A DNA stretch of 64,000 bases from an uncultured Chloroflexia bacterium (GCA_963787025.1 CAWBBG010000027.1:580-64579); one strand, 5' to 3'; shown: positions 6,849-12,621, numbered from the stretch's first letter. A program made the numbers and translations. Notes: generated by a model from the sequence alone, not told the origin.

Positions 6849-7145
6849 CTAGCGAAGGGCGGAGACGGTGGTGAATGCCAGGAGGAGGGAAACCGGCAGG
6901 CCGATTGTCGCAGCCAGCAGGTACCAGTCGCGCGCAGCCCGCCCGTCGGCCACCCGCCGACGCTGCAGCCTGGCCACCCAGAGGAGCACGGCGCTGAGCC
7001 CGGCGACGTAGAGAACGGCTGCGGTCGACACGACGGCGATCGCGAGGGGTCGGACCGATGCGCAGCTGCCGAAGGCGAGCGGTCCGCCACGGGGGCAGGC
7101 GCTCGCCAGCTCAGCGACGACGAGCCCGCCGGCACCCAGGAGCAC
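6849..7145 (-). CDS. small hypothetical membrane protein (start uncertain)
   Basis: Two to three hydrophobic segments; co-oriented with the upstream respiratory operon. Confidence 0.5.
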   Translation of the reverse strand: MLLGAGGLVVAELASACPRGGPLAFGSCASVRPLAIAVVSTAAVLYVAGLSAVLLWVARLQRRRVADGRAARDWYLLAATIGLPVSLLLAFTTVSALR

Positions 7146-7225
7146 GGCTATCGACCACGCGACGTGGGCGATCAGCAGCTCCCGCGAGGGGCCTCCGTGC
7201 CGTGTGGGCCTGCCGCCGGTGGGGG

Positions 7226-7816
7226 TCAGCCGGCCAGGTAGGCGGCCGAGGTGGCCTCGGCCTCACGAGCCTCGCGACGCGTGACCCGGCGGTACTCGAT
7301 GGCGAAGAAGGCGAGCGCCGCGACCCCCAGCCCCGCGACCAGGGCGCCGAAGGCCAGCGCCTGGATCGGGAACGCCTCCGTGCCCGCCGGCGGGACGAAC
7401 GTGCCGCCCGCCATGTTGAAGGCGAGGAGCGGGATCATCACCAGGTAGACGAAGAGCAGCTGCAGGAAGTCGACGATCCGGATGAGGGCCCAGGCAAAGC
7501 CACGGCGGCCGCGGGCTGCCTGTGTCCAGAGCGCAAGCGCGATCAGGATCACGAAGTTCCCACCACCCACCCCGGCCGCGAAGAGGAACCCGGTGTCAGG
7601 GGAGAGCTTGAGGAAGGGAATGTACTGCGTGACGCCGTAGTAGACGTAGTTCGGCACGTAGGCGATCAGGAAGTAGATGTAGAGGAAGAGCGGCACGCCC
7701 TTCAGGACCGCCACCAACCAGGTCTCGTACCCGAAGAGCAGCCAGCTCATGAAGTCATCGACCTGGCGGATGAGGTTGGCGCCGATGGTTCGCGATCGCG
7801 GTCGTGTCTGGCTCAT
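7226..7816 (-). CDS. uncharacterised multi-pass membrane protein of the Rieske/cytochrome b operon
   Basis: 196 aa with about 4 TM segments; starts 7 nt after the corrected cytochrome c stop. Confidence 0.8.
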   Translation of the reverse strand: MSQTRPRSRTIGANLIRQVDDFMSWLLFGYETWLVAVLKGVPLFLYIYFLIAYVPNYVYYGVTQYIPFLKLSPDTGFLFAAGVGGGNFVILIALALWTQAARGRRGFAWALIRIVDFLQLLFVYLVMIPLLAFNMAGGTFVPPAGTEAFPIQALAFGALVAGLGVAALAFFAIEYRRVTRREAREAEATSAAYLAG

Positions 7817-7823
7817 GGGTGCG

Positions 7824-9299: not shown

Positions 9300-9910
9300 A
9301 GGTTGAAGAAGATTCCCTCCCATGGCCAGACCCAGTTCCATCCCGGGCCTCTGAAGAAGGAGCCGATGAGGGTGACCAGCAGACCGCCGACCATCAGGCT
9401 CATGAAGAAGACCCAGATCAGCTTGCGGTCGCGGGCCGCCTTGAACGGTGATCGGTCGACGAACGGGATCAACGCCAGGCCCACCAGGTAGAGGGTCGGG
9501 ACCAGCACGCCGGCGACGGTCGGGTTGAAGTAGCTCAGGATCTCCTGGAGGCCCAGGAAATACCACGGCGCCTTGGCAACGTGCGGCGTGTTGCCGGCGT
9601 TCGCCATCTGCTCGAGCGGCGCCTGGATGAGCAGGGAGGTGACGACGAGGAGCCCCATGATGAGCGCCGCCATGAGGAACTCGGCACGGAGCAGGTGCGG
9701 CCAGGTCAGCACCGTCTCGTCGGGTCGCTTGTCGACCCGGACCATCGACTCCTGCTTGACGTAGGCGAGCAGCCGGAACCGCTCGGTACCCGGCACTCCC
9801 GGGGGCCCGGGAAGCTTTGGCCCGCCTCCGCGCTCGACCATGGGTACCCGTGGCGCCTGGGTCGGAGCGTTCTTGTCGGCGGTCGCGTTCGGCCGCTTCT
9901 CGATGGTCAT
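9296..9910 (-). CDS. cytochrome b6 subunit IV-like (C-terminal part of split cytochrome b)
   Basis: TWPHLL..APLEQMAN..TP..KAPWYFLGLQE (Qo-site motif variant), IPFVDRSP. Confidence 0.88.
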   Translation of the reverse strand: MTIEKRPNATADKNAPTQAPRVPMVERGGGPKLPGPPGVPGTERFRLLAYVKQESMVRVDKRPDETVLTWPHLLRAEFLMAALIMGLLVVTSLLIQAPLEQMANAGNTPHVAKAPWYFLGLQEILSYFNPTVAGVLVPTLYLVGLALIPFVDRSPFKAARDRKLIWVFFMSLMVGGLLVTLIGSFFRGPGWNWVWPWEGIFFNL

Positions 9911-9937
9911 GGGTCTGCCGTTCCTATCCTACCGCGC

Positions 9938-10672
9938 TCAGACCGGACCGCTGATGCCGCCGTCCTTCCGGATCCTCCAGAAGTGGACGATCATCAGAAT
10001 CGCGGCGATGAGCGGGAAGGCGATGACGTGCATCACGTAGAAGCGCAGCAGGGTCCCCTGCCCGACCTCGATCCCGCCGAGAAGGAAGAGGGACGACTGC
10101 TGCGAAAGCAATGGGGCGTAGGTGGCCATCTGGGTGCCCACGGTGACGGCCCAGAACGCGATCTGGTCCCAGGGCAGCAGGTAGCCGGTGAAGCTGAGCC
10201 ACAGGGTCGAGAAGAGGAGCAGGACCCCGATCACCCAGTTGAACTCCCGCGGCGGCTTGTAGGCGCCGTGGTAGAAGACGCGGATCATGTGCAGGAAGAC
10301 GGTCAGCACCATGAGGTGCGCGCCCCATCGGTGCATGTTGCGCACGAGCTCGCCGAACGCGACCGAGTTCTCGATGGAGAGGATGTCCTGGTAGGCGCGG
10401 CTCACCGACGGTACGTAGAAGAACATCAGGTAGAGGCCGGTGACCGTCAGCACCAGGAACAGGAAGAAGCTGATGCCGCCCAGGCAGAAGGTGTACGTGT
10501 AGCGAACCGCGTGCCTCTTGACCCGCACCGGGTGCAGGTGGAGGAACACGTTGTTCATCACCGCCAGGGCACGGGTCCGGCTGGTGGACGGATAGGGCTG
10601 GCGGAAGAGGGAGCGCCAGATCTGCGTCTCCTTCAGGCCCCTGTACAGGTCGCCGGGTCCGGGGAAGCTCAT
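9938..10672 (-). CDS. cytochrome b6-like N-terminal subunit
   Basis: FCLGG (heme ci Cys), [39 protein letters not shown]. Confidence 0.93.
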
Positions 10673-12621
10673 CGGCGCACCGCCATCCCCGCCTGCTGAC
10701 CGATCTGCCCCAGCACGTTGTCCTTGTAGCTCTCCAACAGAACCTTCCCGTCAGGCGTGAACCGCTCCAGCTCGAGGCGGTCCATCGTGATGCAGTTGGT
10801 TGGACACCGTTCGACGCAGAGGTTGCAACGGATGCAGCGCTCCTCGTCGATGATCATGGCAATGCCGCGGGGCCACGACTGGAACAGGTCGATCTCCGGA
10901 TCGTCGCCGCCCACCTGCGCCTTGTCGATCATGTAGATCACGCCCTCGGGGCAGACATCGGCGCAGAGTCCGCACAGGATACAGCGTGGCCCGTCGATGT
11001 TGATGTTGTGGTTGCACTGCAGGCAGCGCGACCCTTCCTCGATCGCGGTGCGCGTGTCGTAGCCCACCTCGACCAGGCTGGTGAAGTCGCGCCGCAGCTC
11101 CGGGGGCGCCATGGGGATGTGGTGGCGGGTGAACGCCTCGTAGTCCTTGGGCATGTCGTGCTCGAGGGCCTGGGTGACCACCGCGCGGTTGATGACCGGC
11201 AGCTCCTCGAGGGCCGCGCCACGCTCACCCCGGAGCCAGCGGTCGATGGCCCGTGCGGCGCGGCGGCCCCGCCCTGCCGATTCGATGATCGTGGCCGGGC
11301 CGGTGACGAAGTCGCCGCAGGCGAAGACGCCCGGGGTGCTCGTCTCGAACGTGTCCGGGTTGATCGTCAGGTATCCACGCTTGAACGCGAACTCGTCGCC
11401 ATCGGCGCCGTTGCCGGTGGAAGGCGGCGGGGTGCGCCAGGCGGAGACGGAGCCGCCGCTGAGCACCGAGCGGCTGTCGGTCACGCCCAGATGACGGTTG
11501 AGCTGGCTGCCGTACTGGCCCAGGACGTTGTTGTCGGCGGCCTGGCTGGTGCACGGGACGACCATGTCGCAGGGGACCACGAACTCACTGCCGGGGATCG
11601 GCTCGGCCGAGCGGCGGCCGGAGGCGTCCGGCGGACCCAGGCGCGTGCGGAGGAACTTCATCCCCACCACCTTGCCGTGCTCGTCGCCCACGACCTCGAC
11701 CGGCGAGGCGAAGAACTCGAAGCGCACGCCCTCGAAGCGCGTCTCGTGCTGCTCCTCCTCGTCCACCACCATCTCGTCCGGTCCGCGCCGGTAGAGGATG
11801 GTGGAGGTCTTGGCGCCCAGCCGCAGCGCCGTCCGCGAGGAGTCCATGGCGGTGTAGCCGCCGCCGATGACCAGGACGTGATCGCCCACCCACTGCTCCT
11901 GGCCCAGGTTCGCGCGCTTGAGGAAGTCCACGCCGTAGATGACGCCGTCGAGCTCCTCGCCGGGGACGTTCATGGCCACCGGGAACATGCAGCCGGTTGC
12001 CACCACCACCGCGTCATGGCGCTTGCGGAGCTCGTCCAGCGTGATGTCGCGGCCGATCTCGACGTTGTAGTGGAACTCGACCCCGTGCTTCGCGACCCAG
12101 GCCACGTCGAGCTCGATCACGTCGCGCGGCAGGCGGAAGGCCGGGACGCCGATCAGCGTGGTCCCGCCGCCGGACGGGAGCGCCTCGTAGATGTGGACCT
12201 CGTGGCCGTCGGCCGCCAGGTCCTTCGCCACCGAGAGGCCCGATGGCCCGGCGCCCACGACCGCCACGCTCCGGCCCGTGGATGGGGCCACCTGCACGTG
12301 GTCGGGCATGTTGTTGCCGTAGTGCCAGTCGACGAGGAAGCGCTTCATGGCGCGGATGGCGAGCGGCTTGTCGATGTCCGCGCGGCGGCAGGCCTTCTCG
12401 CACGGGGCGCTGCACACGTACCCGCAGATGGCGGCCACCGGGTTCGGGTCGCGGGCGAGGATGTAGCCCTCTTCGAAGCGACCCTCGGCGGCCAGCATCA
12501 GGTAGCCCCGACAGTTGGTGTTGACCGGGCAGCCTTCCTGGCACTCGATGTTGCACTGCAACCAGTCGACGCCAACCTCGGCGGTCTGGAACCGGAGCGG
12601 AATTGCGTTCTCGGAGATCAA
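10669..12621 (-). CDS. FAD/NAD(P)H-dependent Fe-S oxidoreductase (GltD/NfnB/DsrL-like) with C-terminal 2x[4Fe-4S] ferredoxin
   Basis: [75 protein letters not shown] start. Confidence 0.92.

Follow-up and report, generated by a model that had tools for sequence, protein, structure and literature searches.

Complexes of the Rieske/cytochrome b kind whose genes stand beside a gene for a NAD(P) oxidoreductase have already been described from genomes, in anammox bacteria and in others. According to Hauser 2025 (PMC12954380), Kuenenia stuttgartiensis has two such operons, Kuste4569-4574 and Kustd1480-1485. The same work reports measured potentials of +303 and +335 mV for the Kuenenia Rieske proteins, places the reductase in a model on the N side with four clusters, FAD and a possible extra b haem, cites de Almeida for its co-migration with the complex, prefers a role in making NAD(P)H to one in oxidising it, and argues that a high-potential Rieske protein combined with menaquinol allows NADP+ reduction. 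Proximity of cytochrome b and oxidoreductase genes has also been reported "in many other cases", and the cytochrome b subfamily concerned spans many phyla, Ktedonobacteria included (Dibrova 2017, PMC5600118). The motif APWY defines a multi-phylum cytochrome b clade that includes Chloroflexi, has Rieske proteins of Mid+ to high potential, with signatures from S-F to S-Y, and was described with no member characterised; the same work puts the S-Y signature in its high-potential class, at more than 260 mV (Kao and Hunte 2014, PMC4122944). Cultured members that these two papers name include Ktedonobacteria, Rubrobacter, Conexibacter, Symbiobacterium and Thermaerobacter. Here we describe a further case, a seven-gene operon on a stretch of 64,000 nucleotides from an uncultured Chloroflexia bacterium (GCA_963787025.1 CAWBBG010000027.1:580-64579), called the window throughout, in which a NADP(H)-type flavoprotein gene is joined to the gene of a split cytochrome b. 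As part of an overall explanation that we hold tentatively, direction of electron flow included, the operon would encode a b6-type, APWY-clade Rieske/cytochrome b quinol:cytochrome c oxidoreductase.

The host is a soil member of the Chloroflexota, class Limnocylindria, and the window is contig C27 of a metagenome-assembled genome (MAG) of 2.34 Mb, 27 contigs and 80.8% completeness. Seven co-oriented genes, recognised by open reading frame (ORF) and Pfam reading, run on the minus strand from 12621 to 6849 in the order flavoprotein, cytochrome b6, subunit IV, Rieske protein, dihaem cytochrome c and two membrane proteins of 196 and 98 amino acids (Table 1). An earlier note, made from this DNA alone, had proposed one tight operon headed by the flavoprotein, and the genes indeed lie where it put them. 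The flavoprotein and b6 genes are translationally coupled by an ATGA overlap at 10672-10669, as that note had said, and the motifs that it named (FCLGG, APWY and YRR) are all present. It was also right about a dihaem cytochrome c, which carries CARCH and CVSCH, and about membrane proteins of no known family, for which neither Pfam nor NCBIfam gave a match.

The flavoprotein carries the Pfam domains Fer4_20 (residues 21-103), Pyr_redox_2 (118-371) and Fer4_7, a 4Fe-4S dicluster domain (546-610), the last being the extra 2x[4Fe-4S] domain that had been claimed for it. Its layout is that of an NfnB/GltD-like core, with two N-terminal cysteine clusters and FAD and NAD(P) folds, followed by a linker and a C-terminal 2x[4Fe-4S] ferredoxin domain. 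In a search of the Protein Data Bank (PDB), residues 21-470 matched 9n5u_A (E 4e-104), 4ylf_B (6e-86), 5jca_L (3e-72) and 2vdc_G (6e-64). The two-cluster N-terminal domain and the FAD and NADPH folds are common to these NfnB/GltD proteins and the window protein, whereas the latter adds the C-terminal domain and a conserved linker marked by R510 and CxxC 533/536. Over 29 sequences, five of the eight N-terminal cysteines (C27, C31, C70, C74, C78) are invariant and the other three are kept in 78-83%. Ten C-terminal cysteines (533, 536, 547, 550, 553, 557, 596, 599, 602, 606) are likewise invariant and form the CxxC at 533/536 and two CxxCxxCxxxCP motifs; R510 and a GGG...D nucleotide motif are invariant as well. 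The cysteine pattern predicts four cysteine-ligated Fe-S sites, two N-terminal and two C-terminal, in addition to FAD. The YRR at residues 277-279 is near-invariant over 29 orthologues and homologues, and its arginines presumably signal NADPH specificity in this family. A similar domain order is found in DsrL. Unlike the Nfn transhydrogenase and glutamate synthase, the window flavoprotein has no adjoining NfnA or GltB gene, its neighbours being a penicillin-binding-protein (PBP) gene upstream and b6 downstream. The C-terminal module is widespread, with 4482 environmental proteins at E<=1e-5 among the candidates scored. The host genome also holds three more GltD-like paralogues, on contigs C10, C21 and C22 (L002-L004), which are 40-45% identical over the core; the one at C22:1454-2485 lies about 4 kb from the NuoD gene.

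The two cytochrome b proteins and the Rieske protein show the residues by which such complexes are commonly compared. Over 26 b6 sequences, the histidine pairs of haems bL and bH are H114/H128, 14 residues apart, and H215/H230, 15 apart; H114, H128 and H215 are invariant and H230 is nearly so. C63 of FCLGG, the CxGG cysteine predicted to hold haem cn covalently, is kept in 25 of the 26, and H47 within NVFLHLHPV is invariant. In subunit IV, KAPWY (K113-Y117), H72 and E77 are invariant over 25 sequences. The earlier note had singled out APWY in place of PEWY: the motif stands (KAPWY, 25/25), and its supposed peculiarity does not, because it marks a published multi-phylum clade with Chloroflexi among its members. 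All ten operon-linked Rieske proteins inspected bear the S-Y signature (CxCH-G-S-x-Y), and the window Rieske protein is predicted to be of the high-potential type. Motifs, together with the ExtP score (298 against 290), suggest a place for the operon in the APWY clade, which corresponds approximately to Dibrova's subfamily G (PMC5600118) and shares with the window a split cytochrome b, APWY and a Mid+ to high Rieske signature. Many members of this clade lack the flavoprotein, among them the flavoprotein-free Chloroflexota and Geobacter ExtOPQ (PMC5877670). The score in question is 298.4 bits for the window b6 against the NCBIfam ExtP equivalog, whose cut-off is 290, and automatic annotation would label the protein "selenite/tellurite reduction operon b-type cytochrome ExtP". 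This name would be misleading, because ExtP is the cytochrome b of the Geobacter extHIJKLMNOPQS cluster, where multihaem cytochromes are encoded and the flavoprotein is absent (PMC5877670).

Like the anammox operons, that of the window is predicted to encode a four-helix, b6-like cytochrome b that binds haem cn, a counterpart of subunit IV, a Rieske protein of the high-potential type and, alongside them, a cytoplasmic NAD(P)/FAD protein carrying four Fe-S clusters. It differs in its dihaem cytochrome c, where the anammox complexes have a hexa- or octahaem protein, in lacking an HAO-like partner, in two extra small membrane proteins and in an aerobic host. Because its cytochrome c is only dihaem, it is a simpler variant and not a strict member of the anammox type. 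The second parallel is the b6f complex with FNR, which shares the b6/subunit IV split, the CxGG cysteine and a NADP(H) flavoenzyme for which a site of action on the N side has been proposed (Dibrova 2017). FNR is, however, an unrelated flavoenzyme of the plant type, has no Fe-S clusters and is not encoded with the complex, and the window has a dihaem cytochrome c rather than cytochrome f and APWY rather than PEWY. Both parallels, which the earlier note had drawn, are in print (Dibrova 2017; Hauser 2025). Its stress on novelty outside anammox organisms was overstated in view of the "many other cases" of Dibrova 2017; APWY, the high-potential (S-Y) Rieske signature and the partnership with a NAD(P) oxidoreductase have all been published already.

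The linkage of the flavoprotein to b6 is strongly conserved. Among close relatives, which include the unpublished genomes G010 and G020 and in which adjacency was taken from a comparison of coordinates, a b6 orthologue occurs in 35 of 40 and the flavoprotein abuts it in 34 of these 35; the single exception, G012, has a b6 fragment only, at a contig edge. The best 80 genome loci of the flavoprotein are 81-96% identical to that of the window, and 75 of them are titled Chloroflexota, Chloroflexi, Chloroflexia, Limnocylindria or Limnocylindrales. At all 51 family loci (of the 80) with at least 5.2 kb downstream, the seven genes follow in the same order, both membrane proteins included. In other families of the class, a five-gene core of flavoprotein, b6, subunit IV, Rieske and cytochrome c is present at five of six loci, the sixth giving no cytochrome c match with the query used; neither membrane protein was found at these six. 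We also searched 300 Chloroflexota genomes, the unpublished G076, G252, G201 and G296 included, with the C-terminal module and with b6, and tabulated the results by hand. Within the class, 26 genomes have a b6 orthologue at E<=1e-80, and the flavoprotein is adjacent in every one.

The linkage extends to distant sequences. That search comprised 80 metagenome loci and an alignment of 29 distant representatives with the window protein, headed by the protein of a Nitrospinota MAG. The distant metagenome flavoproteins are 31-46% identical to that of the window, and a b6 gene follows downstream, in the same orientation, in 71 of the 80 loci, or 71 of the 72 with room for it; eight of the remaining nine end within 400 nt, and only L215 has 4 kb of room and no b6. 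Organism names are attached to two of ten distant flavoprotein clusters, one a Nitrospinota MAG and the other a Dehalococcoidia MAG. These counts from close relatives, the class and distant loci bear out the linkage that had been set beforehand as the check on the earlier note. The Rieske gene stands between flavoprotein and b6 in 55 of the distant loci, and b6 comes directly next, as in the window, in 16. Since both arrangements occur, a Rieske gene after cytochrome b represents one of the two usual arrangements of the family and not the peculiarity for which it had been taken. No natural flavoprotein-b6 fusion of about 895 amino acids was seen among the 120 matches listed in a b6 search for longer proteins. 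Four of the 120 combine Fer4 or Pyr_redox with cytochrome b domains (P0275, 437 amino acids; P0276, 454; P0277, 702; P0287, 465); we read these apparent fusions as artefacts of frame shifts or gene calling at the ATGA junction, as all are singletons and none reaches about 895 amino acids.

The working that we propose for the complex follows an idea of NADP+-reducing bifurcation that Kartal (2011/2013) reportedly put forward for anammox. The flavoprotein would bind the b6 dimer from the N side, with its four clusters wiring FAD to the bH and cn haems. Upon quinol oxidation at the Qo site, one electron would pass via the high-potential Rieske protein and cytochrome c towards the oxidase, while the other would travel via bL and bH and, in part, leave at the Qn site over the Fe-S wire for the reduction of NADP+. 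The yield would be NADPH and proton-motive force from electrons at the quinol level, for example from H2. A high-potential Rieske protein facing a low-potential quinol would leave surplus driving force on the b-haem branch, and the add-on reductase would harvest it. For electrons that enter at the quinone level, as a hydrogenase present in the host could supply them, such a route would cost much less than running complex I in reverse together with transhydrogenase. We consider it quite probable that the flavoprotein is an accessory bound subunit; the entire explanation, with the direction from quinol to NADP+, is plausible and falls short of probable.

The genome offers a setting for such a complex. 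The host is an aerobe with a haem-copper oxidase; its genome holds two COX1 genes, NuoD (complex I), PntB, and a gene for a [NiFe] hydrogenase large subunit, some 2 kb away from that for subunit I of the main haem-copper oxidase (contig C8: 43684-44826 and 46921-48252). A second, Qcr-like Rieske/cytochrome b set on contig C6 (L009:270-2915) encodes a cytochrome c, a Rieske protein of 282 amino acids with CTHAGC...CPCHQSTF and a long cytochrome b of 453 amino acids, and similar long cytochrome b matches occur in most relatives. Given this second complex, complex I and the hydrogenase, the complex of the operon need not be the house-keeping complex III.

Several observations weigh against the quinol-to-NADP+ reading, and the broadest of them come from the phylum survey. 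Outside the class, 72 genomes have a b6 orthologue at E<=1e-80 and the flavoprotein is adjacent in none; a homologue is encoded at some other place in 56 of them (38 at E<=1e-29), and the remaining 16 lack one. Because no flavoprotein gene adjoins this b6 core in any of the 72, the flavoprotein is accessory rather than integral, a module that is linked, unlinked or absent on one conserved core, and for the same reason APWY and the S-Y Rieske signature are not adaptations to NADP+ reduction. Both are kept in the flavoprotein-free or unlinked core of L150. The pair H45/H47 of b6, a candidate ligand for an extra haem like the one proposed for anammox, does not track the flavoprotein, as it is kept in 12 of 12 b6 genes taken from genomes that lack any flavoprotein homologue; all 12 encode the N-terminal motif NVFLHLHP or NYWLHAHP. 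The energetics are also unfavourable: we estimate that, even if menaquinol is the donor, moving electrons uphill to -320 mV while the membrane potential is at its full value is on the borderline of feasibility. No membrane anchor is obvious in the flavoprotein, whose binding to the complex is a prediction. NADPH supply does not need this complex, since the PntB transhydrogenase is present.

The nature of the quinone bears on the same question. Among 24 relatives, MenD was over cut-off in two, neither of them in this family, the futalosine marker PF02621 in none, and UbiD in five, none in the genus; MenB was over cut-off in none of seven genus genomes, four of which are 93-96% complete. The thermodynamic arguments assume menaquinone; were the quinone instead one of high potential, NADP+ could not feasibly be reduced, and this counts further against the proposed direction. 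It is an observation in its own right that the genus shows no quinone-pathway marker over cut-off, though complex I, two Rieske/cytochrome b complexes and COX1 are present. A literature search on the quinone or complex III of Limnocylindria gave nothing naming "Limnocylindria" among the matches listed.

Where the flavoprotein is unlinked, it still tends to accompany the core. Of 41 genomes outside the class with a homologue at E<=1e-29, 38 also have a b6 orthologue; the three exceptions are two genomes of 76% completeness and a third that has a b6 fragment. Because kin are not independent, these figures describe a pattern and do not amount to a statistical test. The homologue in G194 (612 amino acids, 38% identical, same domains) is flanked by genes for an MFS transporter and a STAND NTPase and lies 146 kb from an operon of b6, subunit IV, Rieske and a cytochrome c-cupredoxin protein, and at three unlinked homologue loci no b6, subunit IV or Rieske gene was found within about 8 kb. 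A divergent linked pair occurs in family f14, in at least four of six genomes, with b6 at 39-43% identity. A quick tree of the flavoprotein places the unlinked homologues together with a single linked metagenome sequence (support 95), close to the Limnocylindria clade; the paralogues from the host genome and two further sequences stand on long branches there, and the tree is used for that grouping only. G194 belongs to another Chloroflexota class, and the cytochrome c of its flavoprotein-free operon carries a fused cupredoxin domain of the plastocyanin/azurin-like kind (L150:6425-7465).

Three other explanations have to be weighed against the quinol-to-NADP+ reading. The nearest of them reverses the direction: NADPH would be oxidised and its electrons would pass over the four Fe-S clusters to haem cn/bH and on to quinone at the Qn site, making the complex a NADPH:quinone and, overall, a NADPH:cytochrome c oxidoreductase, or, in a variant, "priming" the Q cycle in the way that ferredoxin/FNR is proposed to feed haem cn in b6f. 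Every step would then run downhill. GltD-type modules normally accept electrons from NADPH, which complex I does not use, and flavoprotein-free relatives with 58-69% identity work with a normal Qn site, so that the site in the window is probably intact. Further points in its favour are the invariant H72/E77 of subunit IV, which fit the His/Glu pair by haem cn suited to quinone reduction according to Hauser 2025, and the FNR-b6f precedent (Dibrova 2017, PMC5600118). Against it, about 250 mV would be wasted that complex I with PntAB could conserve, an argument also made in Hauser 2025, and it gives no reason for the high-potential Rieske signature of the clade. We regard this reversed flow as possible and somewhat doubtful, yet hardly less likely than the forward one; once a bound subunit is granted, we slightly favour quinol-to-NADP+ over NADPH-to-quinone. 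A different objection denies the binding altogether and makes the flavoprotein a soluble NADPH-dependent Fe-S oxidoreductase, Nfn-, SudA- or DsrL-like, with some other acceptor and with co-regulation as the only tie to the complex. The solitary homologue of G194, the three loci without core genes nearby and the same want of an obvious membrane anchor speak for this. It is improbable all the same, given the ATGA coupling, a linkage kept over 31-46% identity and in 71 of 72 metagenome loci with room, the co-occurrence of unlinked homologues with b6 (38/41), the absence of any NfnA, GltB or Dsr partner gene beside the flavoprotein in the window, and the co-migration of the anammox counterpart, as cited from de Almeida in Hauser 2025. 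A complex prediction with two copies each of b6 and of subunit IV residues 40-204 and with flavoprotein residues 470-650, run on separate alignments and with no controls, gave ipSAE values of 0.22 and 0.25 (mark 0.32) and speaks neither for nor against binding, including the docking near haem ci that the earlier note had supposed.

The last explanation is that the operon is decaying in this strain and makes no functional complex, and it turns on two frame breaks that the earlier note had overlooked. The Rieske gene is split over two frames near 9137, its Tat N-terminus starting at the ATG at 9299 and its cluster domain lying in the ORF 9025-8636, and the cytochrome c gene shifts frame near 7977, about 50 codons ahead of its true stop at 7826-7824. 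Aligned with three MAGs of the same genus and one from farther away, all with intact genes, the window shows a single additional base at each break; the intact orthologues in L039, of the same genus, measure 220 amino acids for the Rieske protein and 268 for the cytochrome c. Two single-base insertions less than 1.2 kb apart, in two essential subunits, are what decay could look like. However, the essential PBP gene next door (12766-15088, minus strand), a single ORF of 768 amino acids in L039, is broken too, at about 14380-14525, so that a tblastn of 11 L039 genes against the window finds 3 of the 11 frame-broken in about 18 kb. The remainder of each broken gene is 85-98% identical to the intact orthologues and free of stops, and every same-genus relative is intact. 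We also aligned Logan contigs of four soil runs to the region, of which run X1 matched best, with 0.40 of the sampled words. At 7977 one X1 contig is a base shorter than the window; position 9137 is not covered in X1, and in run X11 a relative's contig is a base shorter there. The X1 support is a single contig at depth 4.5, from a strain whose identity with the host is unproven, so that the read support for assembly errors is thin. No RNA data set was listed among those matching the operon. With relatives intact and the neighbouring PBP gene broken as well, both frame breaks are probably assembly errors, and we think decay very improbable.

Table 1. Features of the operon region in the window; positions are counted from the first nucleotide of the window.
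Feature	Coordinates	Strand	Basis or remark
Promoter match, sigma-70-like, TTGACA-18-TAGCAT	12687..12716	-	consensus match only
NADP(H)-type FAD/Fe-S flavoprotein, 650 aa	10669..12621	-	Pfam, PDB sequence search, alignment
Cytochrome b6 (split, four-helix), 244 aa	9938..10672	-	PF00033 E 2.4e-44; start overlaps flavoprotein stop (ATGA)
Subunit IV-like protein, 204 aa	9296..9910	-	PF00032; Qo motif APWY
Rieske iron-sulfur protein	8636..9299	-	CPHLGC...CLCHGSKY; Tat-type N-terminus RRTFMRR; frame-broken; start overlaps subunit IV stop (ATGA)
Membrane-anchored dihaem cytochrome c	7824..8631	-	CARCH, CVSCH; frame-broken
Membrane protein, 196 aa	7226..7816	-	no Pfam or NCBIfam match
Small membrane protein, 98 aa	6849..7145	-	no Pfam or NCBIfam match; last gene of family-level operon

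The borders of the operon show a few further features. The promoter match lies in the 145 nt that separate the PBP and flavoprotein genes and is the only one in 5200-13000 (7.8 kb), where shuffled sequences give an expectation of 0.3 by chance. At the other end, 36 nt past the last gene and on the same strand, stands a class II aldolase-like gene of 484 amino acids (5358-6812; PF01116, E 4e-14), which has the same place in L039. For the larger of the two membrane proteins, an Atlas search gave unnamed Chloroflexota clusters only.

Taken in full, the proposal is that an add-on flavoprotein turns complex III of abundant aerobic soil Chloroflexota into a bifurcating quinol:NADP+/cytochrome c oxidoreductase without reverse flow through complex I, the module being optional and encodable far from the core, and the quinone perhaps coming from an unrecognised pathway; in this complete form we judge it rather unlikely. 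The contribution of the present analysis is more modest. It recognises the flavoprotein as an accessory, found linked, unlinked or absent, on a core whose APWY, S-Y Rieske signature and N-terminal His pair do not track its presence, and it recognises two probable assembly errors. If it were true that complex III reduces NADP+ by bifurcation at the Qo site, it would be a new route to NADPH for aerobes and would add a mode of operation to one of the best-studied enzymes of bioenergetics, an idea unproven since the anammox proposal. The Limnocylindria version is the simplest described, with a dihaem cytochrome c and no HAO, and is very common in environmental data. The Limnocylindria operon could thus be a more tractable test case than the anammox complexes.

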